A DNA stretch of 64,000 bases. It comes from a phage. The stretch lies in the sequence record PZ019084.1. The stretch is one strand, 5' to 3'. The translations under genes were made by a program, and so were the position numbers. Positions 17,959 through 48,666 of the stretch are shown one piece after another. The stretch's first letter is position 1. The number at the start of each line of letters is the position of its first letter. The notes below the pieces were generated by a model. The model had not been told where the DNA came from. It made no database searches and was given only the letters and a program-made list of their open reading frames with translations.

Positions 17959-19772
17959 TGGTGTTTAACCCTATGCATGATTTCTTTATTTTTGCCGAGA
18001 TTAAATCCACGTTCATTCGGATTTCCCAAATAACCACAAGTTCTTCTTATTGTGTTCATCTTTTTAGGATCAGTTTCTCCACAAATAGAACAAACAAACC
18101 CGTTTTCAGTAGGAGTCATTTCATGAGTACTTCCGCATGTAAAACATTTATCTACTGGCATATTAACACCAAAATAATCTAAATGTTGTGCAGCATAATC
18201 CCAGACAGCCTCAAGACCTTTTAGGTTATTTTTCATATCAGGAAGTTCAACATAAGAAATGTGACCACCTGTCGCAATGAAATGATATGGGGCTTCGCGA
18301 GAAATCTTTTCAAACGGGGTGATATTTTCTTCTACTGAAACGTGGAAACTGTTAGTGTACCAGCCTTTATCAGTAACATCCTTTACACTTCCATATTTCT
18401 CAGTATCAAGTTTACAGAAGCGATAGCACAGGTTTTCAGCAGGAGTAGAATACAAGCTAAAAGCAAAACCGGTTCTTTCAGTCCACTGCTTAAGACGAGC
18501 ATTCATTTTAGTTAAAATTTCCTGTCCAATATCACGACCGACAAGAATATTCAATTCGTGAATACCAATGTATCCTAGGGACACTGAACTTCTACCATTT
18601 TTAAATAACTCAATTATGTCATCATCAGGTTTAAGACGAACCCCGAATGCACCTTCTTGGTAAAGAATAGGAGCAACAGTCGCTTTAACTCCTTTTAAGG
18701 AACTAATTCTACACATCAAAGCTTCAAAACACAAATCCATTCGTTCATTGAACAATTCGGCAAATTTCTGTTCATTGAATTGTGTTCCAATATAAGAATC
18801 TAACGCAATACGAGGAAGATTCAGTGTTACAACACCAAGATTATTACGTCCATCAAGAATTTCATTACCAGTCGAATCTTTCCATACGCTCAAGAAACTG
18901 CGGCAACCCATTGGAGAAACAGGAATAGATGAACCTGTGATAGCTTTATTATTCTTAACTGAAATAATATCAGGATACATTCTTTTGCTTGCGCATTCTA
19001 GAGCAAGCTGCTTAATATCATAGTTCGGATCGTCTTTATAAAGATTGACACCCTCTTCAATGAACATAACAAGTTTAGGGAAAATAGGAGTTATCCCATC
19101 ACGACCAAGACCTTTAATACGATTTTTCAGAATTGCCTTCTGAATCATTCGTTCAGTCCAGTCAGTTCCCGTGCCAAACGTAATTGTTACAAAAGGCGTT
19201 TGTCCGTTTGAACTAAAGAGAGTATTTACTTCATATTCATAAGCTTGGAATGCATCGTATACGTCTTTTTCTGTTTTAGATTGGGCATAATTCAAAGCAT
19301 CAGCGATTTGCCATTTTTCTGCATCCTCAATATGTTTTGCATAGGTGCGTTTAACATAAGGAGAAAGTACTTTATCTACATTAGCAAAAGTCGTTCCGCC
19401 ATACTGATGTGAAGCAACCTGTGCGGTAATTTGTGCCATAATTGCAGTAGCAACACCAATCGATTTAGGCGTTTCAATTTGAGCATTACCTAGCTTAAAT
19501 CCTTTTTCAAGCATTCCTTTTAAATCTACTAAACAGCAATTAGTAAATGGAAGAGCAGGGGAATAATCAATATCATGAAAATGGATAATTCCGCTTTCAT
19601 GTGCTTTCATAATAAAAGACGGGACCATATTTTTGGCAATGTGCTTAGACACAATACCAGCCATAAGGTCCCGTTGAGTTGGAAAAACACGAGAATCTTT
19701 ATTAGCATTCTCGTTTAAAAGGTCTTTATTAGTTTTATGAATCAATCCTTCAATTTCTTTTTCAATTGTCAT
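17955..19772 (-). CDS. nrdD: anaerobic ribonucleoside-triphosphate reductase (class III), uninterrupted
   Basis: 605 aa; C-terminal glycyl-radical motif RRTCGYLG and Zn-ribbon cysteines; no intron. Confidence 0.95.
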   Translation of the reverse strand: MTIEKEIEGLIHKTNKDLLNENANKDSRVFPTQRDLMAGIVSKHIAKNMVPSFIMKAHESGIIHFHDIDYSPALPFTNCCLVDLKGMLEKGFKLGNAQIETPKSIGVATAIMAQITAQVASHQYGGTTFANVDKVLSPYVKRTYAKHIEDAEKWQIADALNYAQSKTEKDVYDAFQAYEYEVNTLFSSNGQTPFVTITFGTGTDWTERMIQKAILKNRIKGLGRDGITPIFPKLVMFIEEGVNLYKDDPNYDIKQLALECASKRMYPDIISVKNNKAITGSSIPVSPMGCRSFLSVWKDSTGNEILDGRNNLGVVTLNLPRIALDSYIGTQFNEQKFAELFNERMDLCFEALMCRISSLKGVKATVAPILYQEGAFGVRLKPDDDIIELFKNGRSSVSLGYIGIHELNILVGRDIGQEILTKMNARLKQWTERTGFAFSLYSTPAENLCYRFCKLDTEKYGSVKDVTDKGWYTNSFHVSVEENITPFEKISREAPYHFIATGGHISYVELPDMKNNLKGLEAVWDYAAQHLDYFGVNMPVDKCFTCGSTHEMTPTENGFVCSICGETDPKKMNTIRRTCGYLGNPNERGFNLGKNKEIMHRVKHQ

Positions 19773-20242
19773 TTTAAACTCTTTCTAAGCTGCTTCTTAA
19801 ATGAAGCTATTAATTGTGTTTTGGTGTCAGATTCATTATATTCAAATCCTCTTTGAAGCATCTCAGCCATCATTTCCTCTTTTCCTAAACGAGAAAATTC
19901 CTTTGATTTATCTCCAACGAAGTTAGGGTGAATATTATTTTGGGTGTAATCGGATTTTAAATAAGTAAGTAAATTTTCTAACCATTCAAGATAATCAACG
20001 CCTTGTCCCTTTAAGCCAGAACGATTAAATTTGTGCTTCATTTGACCTTCTGCAGCATTACACAGATTACATAGCAACCCACGTACCTTTCCTGCTTTTG
20101 GTCCATTTAATTCATGGTCATGGTCAAGGTGATTAGCTTGAACATCAGGATTTAGTTCTCGTTGGCAAATTAAGCATTTACCGTTTTGTGCATTATAAAA
20201 TTTCTGTTTTTCTTCTTTGTATAATTTGCCAGTCAATAACAT
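19769..20242 (-). CDS. 49: endonuclease VII (Holliday junction resolvase)
   Basis: 157 aa, Zn-binding cysteines and HDH motif; matches T4 gp49. Confidence 0.92.
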   Translation of the reverse strand: MLLTGKLYKEEKQKFYNAQNGKCLICQRELNPDVQANHLDHDHELNGPKAGKVRGLLCNLCNAAEGQMKHKFNRSGLKGQGVDYLEWLENLLTYLKSDYTQNNIHPNFVGDKSKEFSRLGKEEMMAEMLQRGFEYNESDTKTQLIASFKKQLRKSLK

Positions 20243-35906: not shown

Positions 35907-36368
35907 TCATTGAGTTTTAATTACTGCTTTAGAAGCCTTTCCCGGTAAACGACGACTGTTGATAATTGCCATCCTGCATTGAAGCGACGGGTCTTTGAAC
36001 TTCGCATTAGGTTTACAAACTGTAAATCCAAGCCAAAGATTTCCATCTGTGATTTCTAAACGCCCAGGACGATATTCAACCCCATCAATAAAATCCTCGT
36101 CAATGTCAGGACGCGGAGGCATACTCAGGAATTCATTAACTTCTAAAACATGGTCTTTTATTTTGTGGAATAATTCAAAAACATATGTCTCATCAATCTC
36201 CCGTTGAATTGCACGATCAAGGAGATGCTGAGAATATTTTAGATGAAACGATGAGACCCCTGCTGCTTTTGATGCCTCACGAATCTCATTGTTAATTTGA
36301 CGAAACTCCGACTCAAAGTGACGACGAAGCTTATTTCGACGGATAAAAACTTCTGTGTTGATAGTCAT
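35907..36368 (-). CDS. regB: site-specific RNA endonuclease RegB
   Basis: 153 aa, matches T4 RegB. Confidence 0.9.
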   Translation of the reverse strand: MTINTEVFIRRNKLRRHFESEFRQINNEIREASKAAGVSSFHLKYSQHLLDRAIQREIDETYVFELFHKIKDHVLEVNEFLSMPPRPDIDEDFIDGVEYRPGRLEITDGNLWLGFTVCKPNAKFKDPSLQCRMAIINSRRLPGKASKAVIKTQ

Positions 36369-36387
36369 GTTATTCTCCTCTTAACTG

Positions 36388-36427
36388 ATAGAAAAATTAT
36401 ACCACAGTCAAGAGGAAAAGTAAACAG
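36388..36427 (-). promoter_or_regulatory. T4-type early promoter
   Basis: GTTTAC (36425-36420). Confidence 0.5.
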
Positions 36428-36748
36428 TTATTCTTTAAATCTAATCAATTTATTCATAGACTTTGTAACTTCTGCACGAACCTCATGTAAGTTTTTAAGC
36501 TGTTCAAGACGCTGCTCGTAGTAAGCAATTTCATCTTCTTCGAGACAGTCTTGTGAATCTTCTTTAAGATAACGTGCATAATCCTGGAAAGCTTTACGGA
36601 CTACTTCTTGGAAGTCATCAAGACTTTGAATTTTCTTAGGAGCAACAGATACACGACGAGGGGCAGTATAATACTCATAACCAAACCCTGCGCTTAATTG
36701 AGCCATTAATATTTTTCCTCTGGTTGGAACACAGCACGACAAGCCCAC
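36428..36748 (-). CDS. hypothetical protein (106 aa)
   Basis: vs.3 position. Confidence 0.5.
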
Positions 36749-36972
36749 ATACTAGCTTCTTTGAGTTTCGTTTTAGCAATAGTTAACTGATCGAGGCTTT
36801 CAGCATAATTCTTTGCGAATTCGCAGTCTTCACAATTATCTAGTGCTTCCCAGAATTCGTCATATAAAGCGTCAAAGATAAGTCCTAAACGAACTTCAGC
36901 GTCTTTGATAGCATTCACTTTACCGATTTTCTCTTCAGTGTGCGGCTTATAACCTTTAATGTCTTCAATCAT
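36706..36972 (-). CDS. hypothetical protein (88 aa) in the vs.4 position; candidate Acb2-type cyclic-nucleotide sponge
   Basis: By position only; the T4 vs.4 product is reported to antagonise CBASS. Confidence 0.45.
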
Positions 36973-37186
36973 ATTCTACTTCCTCACCAGTACATAAATC
37001 ATATTCAACTAAACGAATAGGTTCATGAATGCCATATCCTTGAACAGAAATTTCTGTCGTAGGATAAATTCCATCAATATCACCCATGGTCCACGCTTCA
37101 TTAAATTGCTGTTCGCCTGAATTACTAAACCACTCGGCGAAAGCATTTAACACATCTTTAGAACCTTCAATAATTATCTTTGCCAT
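36965..37186 (-). CDS. hypothetical protein (73 aa)
   Basis: Small acidic ORF. Confidence 0.45.
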   Translation of the reverse strand: MAKIIIEGSKDVLNAFAEWFSNSGEQQFNEAWTMGDIDGIYPTTEISVQGYGIHEPIRLVEYDLCTGEEVEYD

Positions 37187-37548
37187 TACAAGCTCTCAGT
37201 AAAGGTACGAGCGATAACGTCGCGCTGCTGTTCCGGAGTCAGAGAGTTAAAGCGAACTGCATAACCGGATACACGGATGGTCAGCTGCGGATATTTTTCC
37301 GGATGCTTAACTGCATCTTCCAGAGTTTCACGACGCAGAACGTTAACGTTCAGGTGTTGACCACCTTCAATTTTAACTGTAGGCTGTTGTTCAATTTCAA
37401 TTTCACGGGTGTGCAAACCGTAGAAAATTTCTGGGTCTACAAAAGAGTCCTCTTTAAAAGTTTTAGAGACAATAATTCGTGCCTGAATACCATCTTCAAA
37501 ATAAATAGTACCTTTATGTGTGCCTTCAAGAATTTGATATGCTTTCAT
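37186..37548 (-). CDS. autonomous glycyl-radical cofactor (GrcA/YfiD-like)
   Basis: 120 aa; C-terminal half matches E. coli GrcA as remembered, with glycyl-radical motif RVSGYAVRF; coding DNA 37190-37390 is GC-rich unlike its surroundings. Confidence 0.85.
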
Positions 37549-37554
37549 ATAACC

Positions 37555-37935
37555 TCAATTAGAAAATAAATTTATCCAAGACTGTTCTTTAATTAAAAAT
37601 GGCTCAGAATCATATGCCATTAAACTTTGGGTGATTAGTCCTTTAAAAGGCCCATCAATAAATTCCATGGTAAAATATGGAATTTTATTCATTAATCTTG
37701 CATTAGGAGCAGTGCACAAAACTCTGCATCCTTTGAATACGCCTTTTTGTAATTTGTATTGCTTAGGATAAAATTCGCTCAAGACGTTGTTATTTGCCAA
37801 AATTTCAAAATGATTCACCAATTTATTTTTAATAGTTTTTGGCGAAAAATAAAGATATTCGAAAAGTTGCGTATCTGTCATCATTGCATTCCAATTACGA
37901 AAAACTGTGGACGAGTAATACCACCAATGCAACAT
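37555..37935 (-). CDS. hypothetical protein (126 aa)
   Basis: Minus-strand ORF. Confidence 0.5.
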   Translation of the reverse strand: MLHWWYYSSTVFRNWNAMMTDTQLFEYLYFSPKTIKNKLVNHFEILANNNVLSEFYPKQYKLQKGVFKGCRVLCTAPNARLMNKIPYFTMEFIDGPFKGLITQSLMAYDSEPFLIKEQSWINLFSN

Positions 37936-38420
37936 TTACTATTGCAGCAGTGTTGCACAGTTTCAATATGAATATCGTAAATTTTATCCATATCAGGAGA
38001 TTTAACAGGCTCATCGATTATATACAAGATTCGAGAAAGCGATAAACCTCTGAACTTGCTACCTCTATTACCAACAAAACTACGGACAGAATCGGTAAAT
38101 AAGCGAAATCGAATATCATCGCTAGAATAACGAGAAAATTCTTTTTTAATGTGGCCCGCAGAAATTTTAGCGTAAGCTGAAGTATTAGAAAGAACAATAA
38201 CTGTTCCACCGTCATACAGCCAATTAGCAGCAAAATTAGTCACAGCAGTTGATTTACCAGATTGGCGTCCACCATCTAGTCGAAGTGTACAATATTGTTT
38301 AAGCAAGTCTTCAAATGGTGGGATATAATCGTTTTTACAAATTTCTTCTACTCTAGCATCAGAATGGTGTGTAAAAGCATTCATCAGGGATAGATAAGGA
38401 CCAGTTAAAAATGTTCTCAT
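37881..38420 (-). CDS. P-loop NTPase (179 aa from MRTFLT; track ORF starts at 38468)
   Basis: Walker A GGRQSGKST, Walker B YIIDEP. Confidence 0.55.
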   Translation of the reverse strand: MRTFLTGPYLSLMNAFTHHSDARVEEICKNDYIPPFEDLLKQYCTLRLDGGRQSGKSTAVTNFAANWLYDGGTVIVLSNTSAYAKISAGHIKKEFSRYSSDDIRFRLFTDSVRSFVGNRGSKFRGLSLSRILYIIDEPVKSPDMDKIYDIHIETVQHCCNSKCCIGGITRPQFFVIGMQ

Positions 38421-38573
38421 TTTATTCTCTCTAAATTTGGGCCATTCCATGGCGCATGAATTGTCCATTTCTGTATTTACCCATTACCGCACTTGGGCTC
38501 GACCTTATTACAGGTTGGCGGGAATCCCTCATAGAATCATGAGGTCCAGCTTGTTCCCATATTTCTTATTTGC

Positions 38574-39047
38574 TTATTTGAATGATTTGACGTACTGAAT
38601 AGAGCCTTTGCTATTCACGAAAGCGATTTTACCATTTTTATTATACATGGTAGCAGTACGCTGATAACCATAAGTTTGCTTACCAGATTGATAACCAACT
38701 AATGCAAAATTATCTTCACCCATTTTATTCTGTTTAGCGCGGATGCGTTCATGACCGTGTGCCATAAGAACCTTAGCGTCGCCAGTTGCAATGGATCTAC
38801 GAGTTTTTTCATCTTCAACTGTATTAACAAAATCGTCAAATGAATCAAATTTAGCATGGGATTTATTATACAGTTTTCCATCTACTGCATAATTATATCC
38901 TTGTACATCCATCTCAACTTCTGTACCGTCATCCAATACAGCAGTGATTTTTTGACCTTTTTTAAATTTCAAAAGATCAGTAAAAGATTCAGCAATAATT
39001 TGAGAATTAATAGCTGCTTCAGTAATAAATTCTTGGTATGTTTTCAT
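38574..39047 (-). CDS. capsid-targeted internal protein (157 aa)
   Basis: N-terminal capsid targeting sequence MKTYQEFITEA with prohead-protease site ITE/A. Confidence 0.7.
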   Translation of the reverse strand: MKTYQEFITEAAINSQIIAESFTDLLKFKKGQKITAVLDDGTEVEMDVQGYNYAVDGKLYNKSHAKFDSFDDFVNTVEDEKTRRSIATGDAKVLMAHGHERIRAKQNKMGEDNFALVGYQSGKQTYGYQRTATMYNKNGKIAFVNSKGSIQYVKSFK

Positions 39048-39153
39048 GTATATCCTTTAAATGTAAATAATTTTATTCTTTAAGTTTGGGACAATTCACA
39101 CATGAATTGTCCATTTCTGTATTTATCTATTACCGAGTTCGGACTTGGCTTTA

Positions 39154-39732
39154 TTAATTACCACGGGCTGCATTAGCAACGGCGTAAGCATACTGAACAT
39201 TAGCGTCCTTAAACGTACCTTTAGAGGTATCTATTTCTGCCTTAAAGCCGCCTTTAGCCATAACATCAGCAAATTCTTTACGGAAGGCCATTGCATCAAG
39301 ACCTTTCCATGATGATTTATGCTTGGCGAATTCAAGACCAGCGTAGTTGACAGCCTTAGCTAATTTATTATCAATAACCCATTTACCAGCTTTAGGCACA
39401 AACACCGGGCCTTTCTGTTTAGAGAATAGTTTTAAATTCCAGCGACGAAGGTCACCGTCAGCTTTAACAAAAGCTGCATCCAAGTTACTAGCAACAACAT
39501 CTTGAATATGGCCAAATTTAAGCCCATCAACTTCAATATTTAGATCAGTACGCCAGCGAAGTCCTTCCCAAGCGAAAGCTTTAAAGTCGGAAGCTTTTGT
39601 GGCTAGATATCGTTCAAGTGGAGCAGTTTTAGGGTCAAAGCCGTTTCCACCACGATAGTTCCACTCGTCCTTATTAATGCCTTTGGCCTTTTCCGCAGAA
39701 GCTTCAGCGATAAATTCTTTATACGTTTTCAT
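39154..39732 (-). CDS. capsid-targeted internal protein (192 aa, IPIII-like size)
   Basis: N-terminal MKTYKEFIAEA targeting sequence. Confidence 0.7.
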   Translation of the reverse strand: MKTYKEFIAEASAEKAKGINKDEWNYRGGNGFDPKTAPLERYLATKASDFKAFAWEGLRWRTDLNIEVDGLKFGHIQDVVASNLDAAFVKADGDLRRWNLKLFSKQKGPVFVPKAGKWVIDNKLAKAVNYAGLEFAKHKSSWKGLDAMAFRKEFADVMAKGGFKAEIDTSKGTFKDANVQYAYAVANAARGN

Positions 39733-39764
39733 GTGTTTCCTTTAAATATTTTAATTAGTAACTA

Positions 39765-39802
39765 TGAATATACTATCACAGTTCTAGGAGAAAGTAAACA
39801 AC
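39765..39802 (-). promoter_or_regulatory. T4-type early promoter
   Basis: GTTTAC (39800-39795). Confidence 0.5.
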
Positions 39803-39803
39803 T

Positions 39804-40334
<531 letters not shown>

Positions 40335-40790
40335 TTAAAAGAGGCTGTTCATTATTCGGTAAAGTGAAGGACCCATCACATATTGCCATTGAGCACGAGG
40401 AATAAGAGCAAAAGCATCCATCTCTGGAATCATAACGCCATCTTTATTTTCAAAATAAGACTCGCAATAGCAATTTCTAAACATCTCATGCTCTACTGGA
40501 ATCGTATAATAAAATAACTGTAAGTCTTTATTACTAGAATATTTAAATACACCTAGGTCTTCTAGAAGGTCTGGATTATAATTGCTAAAACCGGTCTCTT
40601 CTAAGCATTCTCTTCGTGCTGCATCTAGTGCGCTCAAATCAGAATTTTCTACACGGCCTTTTGGAATATCCCAGCGATGTGCCATCATTCCAGGCTTACG
40701 AGAACCAGTAACTCGTCCCATAAATAAATCTTTATCTTCTGTCATAAAGATAATACCAGCTGATAGTGTTTTCATTTTAATTTCCTGCAT
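40335..40790 (-). CDS. nudE: Nudix hydrolase
   Basis: Nudix box GRVENSDLSALDAARRECLEETGF. Confidence 0.88.
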   Translation of the reverse strand: MQEIKMKTLSAGIIFMTEDKDLFMGRVTGSRKPGMMAHRWDIPKGRVENSDLSALDAARRECLEETGFSNYNPDLLEDLGVFKYSSNKDLQLFYYTIPVEHEMFRNCYCESYFENKDGVMIPEMDAFALIPRAQWQYVMGPSLYRIMNSLF

Positions 40791-41260
40791 TCAGTGATAA
40801 AGTTATTTAAATTTTGAGCATATTTCTTTTCATCAAAAATCTTTTGCTGCCTACGTAAACGCCATGGCATTTCAATGAACACGCACCATATTCCTGATAG
40901 TACTGCTGCTGTAAAAATATTAACAAGTATGATTAAAAGAATCCAATCTCCCGTTCTGCCTACTGGACTTTCTCCAAAGAAGCAAAATACAAATGATGTC
41001 ACAGGAAAACTAATAATATACCACAGAATCATAATCTTATCTGTGAACCAATCAGCGTTCGTTAATTTAGCGCGACCATTATGAATACACACGAATTTAT
41101 CATCTGTTGCAGTAGATGGCTTAACTGGTTGATATCCCATTCTAAACTCCCTAATCAGCAAATTTTTCATATCTTCGGAACAGCCATTCCAGTCAACTCT
41201 ATCAACTGAAATGCCATCGTCCCCATCATCTAAATCATACCAGCGAGTTTTTAAAATCAT
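40772..41260 (-). CDS. membrane protein (162 aa), tandem paralogue family
   Basis: Two TM helices; C-terminal motif ECRKLK. Confidence 0.55.
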   Translation of the reverse strand: MILKTRWYDLDDGDDGISVDRVDWNGCSEDMKNLLIREFRMGYQPVKPSTATDDKFVCIHNGRAKLTNADWFTDKIMILWYIISFPVTSFVFCFFGESPVGRTGDWILLIILVNIFTAAVLSGIWCVFIEMPWRLRRQQKIFDEKKYAQNLNNFITECRKLK

Positions 41261-44374: not shown

Positions 44375-44938
44375 TTATTTATCTAGTTTAGTTATTATAG
44401 CTTCTGCGGCAGCTTTTAGCTTAGATGCGGTGTTAATACGATTTTTAATTTCAGTATACGCATCGCCAAGAACATCAAGGCTATCAGAATAAACACTTAC
44501 ACTATTGCGTTCGCTATTTGAAATAGAACCTTTAGTTTTACGATCAAAATCGGTGTACACGTCTTGAAGATCACGGGCTGCCTTCTTTGCATCATCCAAT
44601 GCGTCAAGAGCTTTATTCAAAGCATTAACGTATTTTTTAGTGTCAAACATATTCTTAGAAATTTTAACAGGTGCGCGTTCAGGAGTAGCTAATGCAGATT
44701 TAGGAACCTGAGCGCCAGATGCCAATTTCTTAGAAATTTTGAAAAACGCTTTATTGAATTTATTTTCTTGACTCATCGTAAAAGAACTATTATCGATGTT
44801 GTACATTTCAATAGCTTTAGCTTTCCACTTAAGAAAATTGCCGCGGTCTTTTGGGTCCAAGTGGAAGAATACTTTAGTAAGATCTGCTTCAGATGGTAAT
44901 TTTGCTGCTTCGGTTAAAAATTCGGCATAGGTTTTCAT
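44375..44938 (-). CDS. capsid-targeted internal-protein-like protein (187 aa)
   Basis: N-terminal MKTYAEFLTEA targeting sequence. Confidence 0.65.
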   Translation of the reverse strand: MKTYAEFLTEAAKLPSEADLTKVFFHLDPKDRGNFLKWKAKAIEMYNIDNSSFTMSQENKFNKAFFKISKKLASGAQVPKSALATPERAPVKISKNMFDTKKYVNALNKALDALDDAKKAARDLQDVYTDFDRKTKGSISNSERNSVSVYSDSLDVLGDAYTEIKNRINTASKLKAAAEAIITKLDK

Positions 44939-45063: not shown

Positions 45064-45537
45064 TTATTTGATTTGTTTAGCAGACCAAATGCGGTCTTTA
45101 ATAATTTTTTGGATGTCTTCAACATACTCAAGAGAGTGAACATGTGGATTATCTTTGAAACTATAAGCACGGGCTAACTTTTGGCCTTCGGTTTTGATTA
45201 CTAAAAGCTCTTTAAGGATAGCTTCATATTTAGCGATAATTCCTTTAACGATATTTTTTTCTTGTGCAGCTTTAGGATCTGCTTTAGGAGCAGGTTTACC
45301 CGAAGCCTTTGCAAAAGCAGCACCAGTAGCAACTAAACTTTTCCAGGCCATACTAACCGCATTTCCCGTAAATCCTTCTGCTTTCATGTCGCGAGCAAAT
45401 TGGAATCGTGATTCGTCAGAAGCATCTTTATAGGAATATTTACCCGCTGCAATGGCTGCTTTTGCGACAGCTTGAATTTCGGTGCTAGATGCTTCATTTA
45501 ACACCGCTTCATTTAAAAATTGAGCATATGATTTCAT
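45064..45537 (-). CDS. capsid-targeted internal-protein-like protein (157 aa)
   Basis: N-terminal MKSYAQFLNEA targeting sequence; flanked by direct-repeat terminators. Confidence 0.65.
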   Translation of the reverse strand: MKSYAQFLNEAVLNEASSTEIQAVAKAAIAAGKYSYKDASDESRFQFARDMKAEGFTGNAVSMAWKSLVATGAAFAKASGKPAPKADPKAAQEKNIVKGIIAKYEAILKELLVIKTEGQKLARAYSFKDNPHVHSLEYVEDIQKIIKDRIWSAKQIK

Positions 45538-46295: not shown

Positions 46296-46371
46296 TGGTC
46301 GAGGCAGTAGGGATCGAACCTACGACCTAGGACTTAGAAGGTCCTTGCTCTTCCTTCTGAGCTATGCCCCG
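46296..46371 (-). tRNA. tRNA-Arg: tRNA-Arg (anticodon UCU)
   Basis: Manual cloverleaf: acceptor CGGGGCA/TGCCTCG, anticodon loop CTTCTAA, T-loop TTCGATC, CCA encoded. Confidence 0.88.
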
Positions 46372-46375
46372 TAAT

Positions 46376-46451
46376 TGGGGTGACCGATGGGAGTCGAACC
46401 CATGACTACGAGAATCACAATCTCGAGTTCTACCAACTGAACTACGGCCAC
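46376..46451 (-). tRNA. tRNA-His: tRNA-His (anticodon GUG)
   Basis: Manual cloverleaf: acceptor GTGGCCG/CGGTCAC, anticodon loop TTGTGAT, CCA encoded; no encoded G-1. Confidence 0.8.
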
Positions 46452-46565
46452 ATTAATACCTACTCCAACAATCAAGATGTCTTCACACGAAATTAAGAGA
46501 AGAGTGATCAGTTCAACCCCTATAATCGCGTCAAGTAGATATTAATGTGACAGTTGTCACAAATT

Positions 46566-46640
46566 TGGCGGACGTGATAGGATTCGAACCTATAACCAAT
46601 CGCTTAACAGGCGATCGCTCTGCCATTGAGCTACACATCC
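46566..46640 (-). tRNA. tRNA-Asn: tRNA-Asn (anticodon GUU)
   Basis: Manual cloverleaf: acceptor GGATGTG/CACGTCC, anticodon loop CTGTTAA, T-loop TTCGAAT. Confidence 0.8.
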
Positions 46641-46644
46641 AAAT

Positions 46645-46731
46645 TGGTGGGGAGTGATGGAGTCGAACCACCCGAGTCGCAATGACAATGGATTTACAGT
46701 CCACACCGCTACCTCTACGGGATAACTCCCC
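46645..46731 (-). tRNA. tRNA-Tyr: tRNA-Tyr (anticodon GUA), long variable arm
   Basis: Acceptor GGGGAGT/ACTCCCC; anticodon arm GGACTGTAAATCC resembles E. coli tRNA-Tyr; 87 nt. Confidence 0.8.
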
Positions 46732-46744
46732 TTAATTCTTAATT

Positions 46745-46819
46745 TGGTGGCCCTGGGTGGAATTGAACCACCATCTGGCGATTATGAGTCGCTTGCTTGA
46801 ACCTTCCAGCTACAGGGCC
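46745..46819 (-). tRNA. tRNA-Ile: tRNA with anticodon CAU (Ile2/AUA-reading type, or Met)
   Basis: Acceptor GGCCCTG/CAGGGCC; anticodon arm GCGACTCATAATCGC as in E. coli tRNA-Ile2. Confidence 0.8.
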
Positions 46820-46820
46820 T

Positions 46821-46896
46821 TGGTGCTGATTGACGGAATCGAACCGCCGACCTTCTCATTACAAGTGAGTTGCTCTACCTACTGAGCTAAATCAGC
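46821..46896 (-). tRNA. tRNA-Thr: tRNA-Thr (anticodon UGU)
   Basis: Acceptor GCTGATT/AATCAGC; anticodon loop CTTGTAA. Confidence 0.85.
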
Positions 46897-46901
46897 AAAA
46901 C

Positions 46902-46991
46902 TGGCGGAGGCGATAGGATTTGAACCTATGAGTCGCCGGAGCGACTGCCGGTTTTCAAGACCGGTGCATTAAACCACTCTGCCACGCCTCC
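46902..46991 (-). tRNA. tRNA-Ser: tRNA-Ser (anticodon UGA), long variable arm
   Basis: Acceptor GGAGGCG/CGCCTCC; anticodon arm CCGGT-CTTGAAA-ACCGG; 90 nt. Confidence 0.85.
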
Positions 46992-46993
46992 AG

Positions 46994-47067
46994 TCTCCAT
47001 ACAAGGATTTGAACCTTGGACCTCCTGATCCCAAATCAGGCGCTCTACCAAACTGAGCTACACGGAG
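46994..47067 (-). tRNA. tRNA-Pro: tRNA-Pro (anticodon UGG)
   Basis: Anticodon arm CCTGA-TTTGGGA-TCAGG; CCA not encoded. Confidence 0.85.
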
Positions 47068-47077
47068 TAAATTAAAT

Positions 47078-47151
<74 letters not shown>

Positions 47152-47156
47152 AAATT

Positions 47157-47243
47157 TGGTGCGAGAAGTGGGACTCGAACCCACAAGGAAATCATTCCGC
47201 AGCATTTTAAGTGCTGTGCCTTTACCAATTTGACCATTCTCGC
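47157..47243 (-). tRNA. tRNA-Leu: tRNA-Leu (anticodon UAA), long variable arm
   Basis: Acceptor GCGAGAA/TTCTCGC; anticodon arm CAGCA-CTTAAAA-TGCTG; 87 nt. Confidence 0.85.
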
Positions 47244-47244
47244 G

Positions 47245-47317
47245 CTGGGAATAAAGGACTTGAACCTTTGCATCCTGGAATCAAAATCCAGTGCCTTACC
47301 AACTTGGCTAATTCCCA
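47245..47317 (-). tRNA. tRNA-Gln: tRNA-Gln (anticodon UUG)
   Basis: U1-A72 acceptor like E. coli tRNA-Gln; anticodon arm CTGGA-TTTTGAT-TCCAG. Confidence 0.85.
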
Positions 47318-48378: not shown

Positions 48379-48666
48379 TTACAAAAGATTTTTAGCAATA
48401 ATCTTGAGATATGCCGCAGAAATGTGTTTAGCTTTAAACAACGCAGTTTCTTCAGCAGGAGAGATAATGATTGTAGCACCATCCTTTTTAGCAGACCACC
48501 CATCACCTAGGTAAACAGTACCTTTGATTTCTTCGCCATCAACCAAGCTAATCATTGGTTTACCTTCTCGTCCTTTATTTGCTTTAATAACTTCAGAAGT
48601 AAGAGTAGCTTCAGTAATAGTAGAAACCGGGGTAGTTGTAGAAGTAAATTCTTTGAAAGTTTTCAT
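48379..48666 (-). CDS. ipI: internal protein I (capsid-targeted, injected with DNA)
   Basis: 95 aa; targeting sequence MKTFKEF...ITE/A (cleavage would leave 76 aa); position between 57B and tRNAs. Confidence 0.8.
   Translation of the reverse strand: MKTFKEFTSTTTPVSTITEATLTSEVIKANKGREGKPMISLVDGEEIKGTVYLGDGWSAKKDGATIIISPAEETALFKAKHISAAYLKIIAKNLL

Follow-up and report, generated by a model that had tools for sequence, protein, structure and literature searches.

The window analyzed here is the whole 64,000-nt stretch of phage DNA in sequence record PZ019084.1. Its closest whole-record match showed 97% identity over 94% of the query, and no near-identical genome was found. The window begins at gene 42, just beyond the position of beta-gt/beta-alpha-gt. 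Between the lysozyme gene e and vs.8 lie two genes on the minus strand, ipIII and ip4, which are the two ORFs reported in a preliminary description of this sequence (Table 1). The interval is very probably the internal-protein locus of a Tequatrovirus (T4-like coliphage) carrying two known cassettes. Polymorphic internal-protein loci occur at two places, from e to vs.8 or beside 57B, and the e-to-vs.8 interval is one of two loci of T4-type phages that have long been recognised as hypervariable.

Table 1. Features of the e-to-vs.8 interval and its borders (positions in the window).
Feature	Position	Strand	Evidence
vs.8, conserved T4 early gene	37881..38420	-	87% identity to T4 vs.8; Walker A GGRQSGKST
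vs.8 leader, conserved right border of the variable region	38431..38563	-	92-96 nt at 97-100% identity in relatives
Exchanged segment, 452-nt ip4 body	38564..39015	-	blastn breakpoints against VIPECOOM01 and T4
ip4 (ipIV), DUF7412 internal protein, 157 aa	38574..39047	-	Pfam DUF7412, E 5.7e-96
ip4 leader codons	39018-39047	-	
ipIII-ip4 spacer block	39089..39156	-	direct repeat D1 and hairpin fold
ipIII, 192 aa	39154..39732	-	91.7% identity to T4 IPIII over 192 aa, E 8e-118
ipIII leader codons	39703-39732	-	
Early-promoter/stem-loop block between e and ipIII	39756..39799	-	TTTACT-N17-TAGTAT overlapping an imperfect hairpin (fold)
Gene e (T4 lysozyme)	39804..40298	-	Pfam Phage_lysozyme, E 1.4e-13; e/endolysin annotation in all related records
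Two exact T4 late-promoter boxes (TATAAATA) upstream of e	40312..40332	-	pattern count

Gene e forms the conserved left border of the variable locus, with dN/dS of 0-0.05 against its relatives. Both ipIII and ip4 are placed between e and vs.8 in the same way as ipII and ipIII of T4. The preliminary description implied that this arrangement was novel, but the order e-ipIII-ip4-vs.8 was already annotated in Shfl2, ECML-134, and PST. Five arrangements were seen between e and vs.8, namely those of T4, of T2 and RB32, of the window, of vB_Eco_Some, and of G4498. A scan of IMG/VR yielded five loci, a small number for a synteny survey.

The gene adjoining e, as ipIII does in T4, encodes a protein that had been noticed for its IPIII-like size and that is, judged from sequence comparison, a one-to-one orthologue of T4 IPIII. 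The leader, the cleavage site, and the position beside e are common to both, and the protein of the window differs by 16 substitutions and is one residue shorter. It matched phrog_5341 ('internal virion protein') over the full length (E 6.5e-117) and shared 99.5% identity with a protein of ECO07P1 that is annotated as 'internal protein III'; no match was found among PDB sequences. Codon alignment gave dN/dS of 0.075-0.12 for ipIII. A further difference from T4 lies in the 3' flank of ipIII: a copy of the vs.8 leader block is present there in the window and missing from T4.

The second protein was proposed as a novel member of the internal proteins, which was not borne out. It is Ip4 (IpIV), 100% identical over 157 aa to the annotated ipIV product of T2, RB32, and PST, and 98% identical to UniProt Q38388, 'Ip4' of phage K3. 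The match to Pfam PF24183 (DUF7412) scored 319.4 bits, where the gathering cutoff is 27, and aligned residues 1-157 with profile positions 1-158, and phrog_3155 ('internal virion protein') was matched with E 6e-102. Although the protein shows no difference from that of T2, RB32, and PST, the ip4 gene of the window differs by 19-27 synonymous changes. The Ip4 proteins of T2, K3, RB32, RB51, and PST have the same leader, and their genes occupy the same spot directly upstream of the vs.8 leader; in T2 and RB32, however, ip4 is the sole gene between e and vs.8, while in the window it follows ipIII.

Ip4 was the commonest of the three internal proteins searched, with 471 phage records compared with 261 for IPIII and 198 for IPII. 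Members of the DUF7412 family were found at 61-71% identity in T4-like phages of Klebsiella, Salmonella, and Serratia. A remote homology search of 1.84 billion representatives returned only three distant full-length relatives, and a match to a 1879-aa adhesin was discarded as a repeat artefact. PDB sequences gave no match to Ip4.

Ip4 was also considered as an orthologue of T4 IPII. The two occupy an equivalent slot downstream of ipIII and have the leader and a conserved ribosome-binding block in common. Orthology was rejected: the similarity did not extend past the leader region (E 1.7e-4, 33% identity), and the bodies had none. IPII has 100 aa compared with 157 aa in Ip4, in agreement with the earlier remark that the 157-aa protein does not match IPII. 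The 198 records found with mature IPII represent a family different from Ip4. One-to-one orthology with the T4 pair IPII/IPIII thus holds for IpIII and not for Ip4.

As had been described, both ORFs open with the capsid targeting sequence of T4 ending in (I/L)xE: MKTYQEFITE|A in Ip4 and MKTYKEFIAE|A in IpIII. These N-termini fit a pattern of about 10 residues close to MKTYQEFIAE, and a motif check placed a putative gp21 site, (L/I)xE, at residues 8-10 (ITE|A and IAE|A, respectively). A degenerate DNA pattern of the leader had four matches in the window, the two leaders of Table 1 and positions 44909-44938 and 45508-45537; all four were starts of minus-strand ORFs, and 100 shuffles gave no match. 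Ip4 contains a second putative (I/L/M)xE site, IAE|S, at residues 18-20 (codons at 38988-38996), which is kept in homologues, with E20 invariant. The mature form of Ip4 is predicted to start at S21 (137 aa, 15.5 kDa, pI 9.3) or at A11, and that of IpIII at A11 (182 aa, pI 9.6). The mature forms are predicted to be basic, with pI of 9.1-9.6 overall and 9.1-9.3 for Ip4.

Distant DUF7412 homologues begin with another, lineage-specific leader, MNFxxFLNES, which on contig L020 is common to three neighbouring ORFs. That homologues of one family bear lineage-specific leaders argues for an N-terminus that serves in targeting and a body that is the cargo. What is established for T4, together with these sequence features, lets us infer how the two proteins may be packaged, cleaved, and injected. 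The 10-residue leader would take Ip4 and IpIII into the scaffold core of the prohead, where the prohead protease gp21 would cut it off after Glu10, and Ip4 would probably be cut also after the conserved Glu20. The small basic products would then enter the host along with the DNA. No virion proteomics for Ip4 was found in the literature searched.

The two boxes upstream of e were the sole exact late-promoter boxes in 37500-40500, where none was found directly upstream of ipIII or ip4; late e-ipIII-ip4 transcripts therefore probably arise from them. The block between e and ipIII resembles the PeSL of the PST/T4 type and has one mismatch in the -10 box to the PeSL consensus TTTACW-N17-TAYWAT (PMC4122927). 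VIPECOOM01 has this block upstream of its denV, with a 95% match to positions 39757-39799. Directly upstream of ip4 there was no PeSL-like block. The ipIII-ip4 spacer includes a partial second copy of the vs.8 leader (82% over 56 nt), and it contains a perfect 10-bp hairpin at 39089-39112 (fold z -2.0) and a late box with one mismatch, GATAAATA, at 39120-39127. The spacer after ipIII is common to Shfl2, G4498, and VIPECOOM01, but it was not found in T4 or PST. In 36000-41000, Rfam gave only a sub-threshold chance match to a snoRNA.

The vs.8 leader, for which the relatives in Table 1 are RB32, Shfl2, vB_Eco_Some, T2, PST, and T4, includes the repeat copy D1a (38455-38510) and a 33-aa ORF (38431-38532). 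In T4 this ORF continues in frame into vs.8: residues 1-32 of T4 Vs.8 map to 38532-38437, a frame that differs from that of the remaining vs.8 in the window. The vs.8 product itself matched phrog_1488 (E 8e-79), showed weak similarity to the ATPase of the terminase large subunit, and is annotated as Vs.8 in Shfl2, PST, and T4.

In T4, VIPECOOM01, and vB_Eco_Some, the interval carries denV, the gene for endonuclease V, a pyrimidine-dimer glycosylase. Its absence from the regB-e interval, noted before, was confirmed: tblastn with T4 DenV detected no denV in the 64-kb window and nothing in the e-regB interval. A relocated copy in the window was rejected as well, because the sole match (49 aa, E 4.7e-4) fell inside gp49 endonuclease VII at 19769-20242, and a search of the complete Shfl2 genome, where the locus is the same, gave no denV either. 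T2, RB32, PST, and G4498 also lack denV at this locus.

Comparison by blastn located where the window departs from the denV-bearing phages. Homology with VIPECOOM01 and T4, in which denV follows ipII, ran from 40400 to 39016 and restarted at 38563, so that one breakpoint falls within the leader codons and the other 11 nt beyond the stop codon. Between these points the window has the 452-nt ip4 body, and VIPECOOM01 and T4 have 747 nt comprising the ipII body, a promoter/stem-loop, and denV. Recombination at these two points, in the leader codons common to both cassettes and shortly after the stop codon, would have put the ip4 body where ipII and denV stood. The sequence thus points to cassette replacement as the cause of the absence of denV, and we consider the reading of the locus as a whole, with two known cassettes and such a replacement, very likely to be right. 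The opposing view of the preliminary description, that new effectors and a P-loop protein displaced denV in a novel arrangement, fits the absence of denV from the window and the P-loop ORF adjoining the ip genes, but it is hardly tenable, because the identical order is on record in Shfl2, ECML-134, and PST, Ip4, present in 471 phage records, already bears its name in UniProt for phage K3, and the P-loop ORF, which does exist, is vs.8, found beside denV in T4 too and hence not standing in its place.

Internal-protein cassette shuffling in T4-type phages was reportedly described by Repoila et al. in 1994 (cited in PMC12373910). The locus of the window does not differ from it in kind: the cassettes are bounded by leader codons and conserved flanking blocks, and more than one kind of cassette is preceded by the promoter/stem-loop block. 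It is one further instance, with mapped breakpoints, of cassette exchange in T4-type phages, in which modular exchange mediated by PeSL is known (Arbiol 2010, PMC2839356; Comeau 2014, PMC4122927).

The genes, the gene order, and the denV polymorphism of the locus are all already known, and the consequence for genome annotation is little. In sum, what was observed in the preliminary description holds, and its interpretation is only partly supported. With no denV in the window, the phage should be without the pyrimidine-dimer glycosylase. A phage without denV is expected to be more UV-sensitive, like T2, and this predicted sensitivity would be relevant to use in therapy or biocontrol. The practical gain of the analysis is a confident model of mature Ip4, the prediction of a further site at which it may be processed, and evidence that purifying selection on it is very strong.

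A first model of full-length Ip4 was mediocre (pLDDT 68.5). When mature Ip4 was modeled with distant homologues added, the AF2 model was confident (pLDDT 91.6) and predicted a small beta-barrel with a helical insert. Searching BFVD with the model returned only Ip4 of K3 (Q38388), and no informative or enzyme-like relative. No conserved residues of catalytic type were seen. The lack of such residues and of an enzyme-like structural relative suggests that Ip4 may be a binder rather than an enzyme. The dN/dS of ip4 was 0.008 or less, which represents very strong purifying selection and indicates that the protein is functional. Together with the conservation of the family across phages of Escherichia, Klebsiella, Salmonella, and Serratia, it would suggest that a host target of Ip4, if there is one, is itself conserved across Enterobacteriaceae.

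Several internal proteins have known targets. Ip1, Ip2, and Ip3 of T4 each inhibit a distinct GmrSD type IV restriction enzyme (PMC12373910), which agrees with the earlier view of internal proteins as a class of anti-restriction factors. IPII/Ip2 is an inhibitor of GmrSD-ECOR21 (PMC12373910), and IPIII/Ip3 of T4 is injected and inhibits the two-gene GmrSD of E. coli ECOR17, as shown for the T4 protein only (PMC12373910, PMC9391042); it is required on ECOR17 and active also without its leader (PMC9391042). Bas37_0260, the fourth such protein with a leader, blocks McrBC (bioRxiv 10.1101/2025.11.20.689424). For Ip4, no target was reported in the literature searched.

By analogy with these proteins, Ip4 would most likely counter a host nuclease that acts early and targets DNA, and would do so as a stoichiometric protein inhibitor. 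Our best guess for the target, held tentatively and at slightly under an even chance, is a type IV (modification-dependent) enzyme outside the tested GmrSD clusters; the class of type IV (GmrSD/McrBC) inhibitors is defined by function and has no common sequence or fold. Two observations speak against a type IV inhibitor. When ip4-10 were screened against GmrSD variants, no reproducible inhibition was obtained (PMC12373910, Supplementary Fig. 9), and T2, which carries Ip4, remains sensitive to GmrSD-ECOR21 and GmrSD-ECOR17 (PMC12373910). The near-zero dN/dS is also an unusual signature for an inhibitor engaged in an arms race.

The same observations bear on the alternative that Ip4 is an injected anti-defence protein with a target other than a type IV enzyme, either another early-acting system or a conserved factor of the host, for instance a nuclease, sensor, or protease. 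The lack of a reproducible match for ip4-10 among the GmrSD variants tested is in line with such a target, as is the maintenance of the family at 61-71% identity in phages of three other genera, and the low dN/dS suits a conserved target better than a fast-diversifying nuclease family. However, all four leader-bearing internal proteins of T-even phages with known targets inhibit type IV enzymes, and the structure and sequence searches gave no lead to another target; we regard this alternative as unlikely.

Ip4 might also have no specific host target and act as a basic head-filling or DNA-associated protein that aids condensation, protection, or ejection of the genome. The predicted basicity of mature Ip4, the strong purifying selection without diversification, and the small Sm/SH3-like barrel, a fold often used in nucleic-acid binding, would suit such a role. 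However, phages that are otherwise near-identical differ in having ip4, which T4 and VIPECOOM01 are without, so that ip4 is dispensable for head assembly and ejection, and both IPII and IPIII, likewise basic and long deemed fillers, have specific targets. This role thus seems improbable.

An inhibitory function of Ip4 directed at a host defence new to the internal proteins of T-even phages, whether a type IV system outside the tested GmrSD enzymes (e.g., a McrBC-like one) or a non-restriction system, is possible, though we place it below even. If true, the beta-barrel with its helical insert would be a new inhibitor scaffold.

The window comes from a T4-like coliphage of the genus Tequatrovirus. 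In megablast, the interval 37500-40400 matched 918 phage records, with full-length matches to ECML-134 and Shigella phage Shfl2 at 94% identity; over a larger 24-kb stretch no near-identical record was found, the best having 97% identity at 94% coverage. Genes were named by comparing the ORF map with the annotated genes of Shfl2, PST and T4.

Coordinates of the features discussed (annotation: that of Shfl2, PST and T4)
Feature	Position	Strand	Basis
gp49 (endonuclease VII)	19769-20242	-	
DenV-like stretch in C-terminal part of gp49	19784-19930		tblastn
regB	35907-36368	-	ORF map, annotation
vs.3	inside ORF 36428-36748	-	ORF map, annotation
vs.4	36706-36972	-	ORF map, annotation
vs.5	36965-37186	-	ORF map, annotation
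vs.6	37186-37548	-	ORF map, annotation
vs.7	37555-37935	-	ORF map, annotation
vs.8	37881-38420	-	ORF map, annotation
vs.8 with its leader	37881-38532	-	
157-aa ORF (ip4)	38574-39047	-	ORF map
192-aa ORF (ipIII)	39154-39732	-	ORF map
Promoter/stem-loop block	39756-39799		
e (lysozyme)	39804-40298	-	ORF map, annotation
nudE	40335-40790	-	ORF map, annotation
187-aa ORF	44375-44938	-	leader-type start
Second 157-aa ORF	45064-45537	-	leader-type start
11 tRNA genes	46296-47317	-	
95-aa ORF	48379-48666	-	leader-type start

Both ORFs of the preliminary description were present where it had placed them and began with the T4 capsid-targeting leader (MKTYKEFIAE|A in the 192-aa protein, MKTYQEFITE|A in the 157-aa protein). 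The former, noted for its IPIII-like size, proved to be a plain one-to-one orthologue of T4 IPIII (91.7% identity over the whole length, E 8e-118), and matched the protein annotated as "internal protein III" in phage ECO07P1 at 99.5% identity. Its predicted mature form has 182 aa and a pI of 9.6. The latter did not match IPII, as had been observed: the similarity was weak (E 1.7e-4, 33% identity) and rested on the common leader. It was, however, not a novel member of the class. The protein matched Pfam DUF7412 over its full length (E 5.7e-96), belonged to PHROG 3155 "internal virion protein", and was 100% identical to genes annotated ipIV/Ip4 in T2, RB32 and PST; the sole significant match to its model in the BFVD structure library was UniProt Q38388, "Ip4 [Enterobacteria phage K3]". 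These results indicated that it is Ip4, an already named internal protein. By tblastn, 471 phage records contain Ip4, 291 of them at an identity of at least 99%. A 2014 comparison of PST with T4 had already noted five internal-protein sequence differences between the two phages (PMC4122927).

When ip4 was compared with six relatives, 19-27 synonymous and 0-1 non-synonymous changes were counted (dN/dS ≤0.008). This constraint is at the level of lysozyme and about 10 times tighter than in ipIII (dN/dS 0.075-0.12) or vs.8 (about 0.11), a strong contrast between the neighbouring cassettes ip4 and ipIII. With distant homologues included, the mature domain was modelled at pLDDT 91.6 and pTM 0.86, with a predicted fold of a small beta-barrel carrying a helical insert.

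The absence of denV from the 64-kb window was confirmed, since tblastn with T4 DenV as query found no gene. The only match below E = 1 was a 49-residue stretch inside gp49, aligning with T4 DenV residues 56-101 (41% identity, E 4.7e-4); it was rejected as a denV gene, being a local similarity of two T4 repair/recombination nucleases. The complete genome of Shfl2, which has the same locus, gave no DenV homologue at E ≤0.01 (tblastn), and the T2 record has no denV at the e-vs.8 locus. Lack of the v (denV) function is the classical reason why T2 is more sensitive to UV than T4. Absence of denV is a common, known polymorphism.

The interval from e to the vs.8 leader is variable among close relatives. 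T4 and VIPECOOM01 have the order e-ipIII-ipII-denV-vs.8; the window, Shfl2, ECML-134 and PST have e-ipIII-ip4-vs.8, T2 and RB32 have e-ip4-vs.8, vB_Eco_Some has e-denV-ip4-vs.8, and G4498 has e-IP-IP-ipIII-ip4-vs.8. In pairwise blastn, homology with VIPECOOM01 and T4 covered e, ipIII and the spacer as far as 39016, 32 nt into the ip4/ipII leader codons, and restarted at 38563, 11 nt beyond the ip4 stop codon, so that the 452-nt ip4 body occupies the place of 747 nt in VIPECOOM01 (ipII body, promoter/stem-loop block and denV). Of the two homology arms for cassette exchange, one is thus provided by the common leader codons and the other by the conserved vs.8 leader. This agrees with the cassette model reportedly proposed for these loci in the 1990s (Repoila et al. 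1994, as cited in PMC12373910). Diversity at the locus arises by swaps of whole cassettes, not by point mutation.

The promoter/stem-loop block downstream of e had a 95% identical copy upstream of denV in VIPECOOM01, and resembled the PST/T4-type promoter-early stem-loop consensus (PMC4122927) bar one mismatch. In the ipIII-ip4 spacer, 56 nt of the vs.8 leader recur at 82% identity, with a perfect 10-bp hairpin; this second copy occurs also in Shfl2, G4498 and VIPECOOM01, not in T4 or PST, and was probably left behind by an unequal exchange in the past. In a metagenome contig (Ga0485749_006685, 139-1215), a gene with a weak match to Pyr_excise, the DenV family, is followed directly by a distant DUF7412 homologue (35% identity). 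As vB_Eco_Some shows the same adjacency, the linkage of denV and ip4 may be old.

The P-loop ORF, thought to stand instead of denV, is vs.8 (87% identical to T4 vs.8; phrog_1488), which in T4 sits on the far side of denV; it is the next conserved gene and no replacement. The annotated T4 vs.8 has 219 aa including an N-terminal leader, which here lies in a different frame as a separate 33-aa ORF, as also in PST and vB_Eco_Some. The gene is intact in the window (179 aa, start MRTFL); T2 has a truncated version, and in Shfl2 stop codons interrupt it. The protein weakly resembles the terminase large-subunit ATPase (phrog_2, E 4e-6).

The leader pattern, searched as degenerate DNA, had four matches in 64 kb, all at ORF starts on the minus strand, versus none in 100 shuffles. 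Leader-type starts were seen in the 187-aa ORF (MKTYAEFLTEA; phrog_2280, unknown function), the second 157-aa ORF (MKSYAQFLNEA) and the 95-aa ORF (MKTFKEFTS...ITEA), which adjoins the 57B-like gene at the ipI locus. Among 1.84 billion representatives, a profile search yielded just three more full-length DUF7412 proteins, all distant, starting with MNFEQFLNES, MNFKDFLNES and MVTFKEIYNS…SLNES. In these relatives homology extends over the body, whereas the leader varies by phage lineage, which supports the leader as a targeting signal. On a Logan contig (ERR14707364_71623, 181-2758), an internal-protein-like locus of a distant T4-type phage, four ORFs, one of them DUF7412, open with a variant leader (MNFEQFLNES, MNFQRFLNEA, MSFKKYLDEQ, MKFSEFLNES); that three neighbouring ORFs there have this variant in common is further support for a targeting signal.

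If established T4 biology applies, the leader would steer IpIII and Ip4 into the prohead core, gp21 would cut after the Glu of (L/I)xE, and the mature proteins would be injected with the DNA. In Ip4, residues 18-20 form another (I/L/M)xE site, whose Glu is invariant in all close homologues and which appears as LNE in two of the three distant ones; mature Ip4 is therefore predicted to start at S21 (137 aa, 15.5 kDa, pI 9.3). The only exact late-promoter boxes found, TATAAATA (n=2), lie upstream of e, so ipIII and ip4 are probably expressed late by read-through.

The general view of internal proteins as anti-defence candidates is sound and has since been borne out experimentally for Ip1-3: T4 Ip1, Ip2 and Ip3 inhibit three different GmrSD type IV restriction enzymes, one each and without cross-protection (PMC12373910), and IPIII, required on E. 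coli ECOR17, is active even without its leader (PMC9391042). Given these published roles, the IpIII of the window is very probably a GmrSD-ECOR17-type inhibitor. McrBC is inhibited by a leader-bearing protein of the ipI locus of phage Bas37 (bioRxiv 10.1101/2025.11.20.689424); this inhibitor, Bas37_0260 (2025 preprint), might have its counterpart in one of the three extra leader-bearing ORFs. For ip4-10, no reproducible inhibition of GmrSD variants was reported (PMC12373910, Supplementary Fig. 9), and T2 is restricted by GmrSD-ECOR21 and GmrSD-ECOR17 although it carries Ip4 (PMC12373910). That Ip4 would share the type IV restriction inhibitor class of function is a best guess by analogy, on thin evidence. 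It is possible, if not quite probable, that Ip4 inhibits a defence so far linked to no internal protein, and the strong constraint on Ip4 hints that its target is conserved.

The preliminary description picked out a real feature and read its structure correctly, but over-interpreted it as novel: records already exist for both proteins and their order, for the lack of denV, for the variability between e and vs.8, and for anti-restriction as a role of this protein class.

Other features were observed in the region. The vs.4 homologue matches Acb2/Tad1 (Pfam hairpin domain, E 7e-20), the family of cyclic-oligonucleotide sponges known from T4-like phages. The vs.6 homologue, which RefSeq records list as the autonomous glycyl radical cofactor GrcA, has a Gly_radical domain (Pfam glycyl-radical domain, E 2.4e-18). 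The tRNA genes are clustered (Arg, His, Asn, Tyr, Met, Thr, Ser, Pro, Gly, Leu, Gln); T4 has fewer, eight. In the T2 RefSeq record (NC_054931.1; locus L004, 1942-2913), nudE is a 972-nt CDS running through and overlapping gene e, which suggests either an artefact of annotation or a fusion by read-through.
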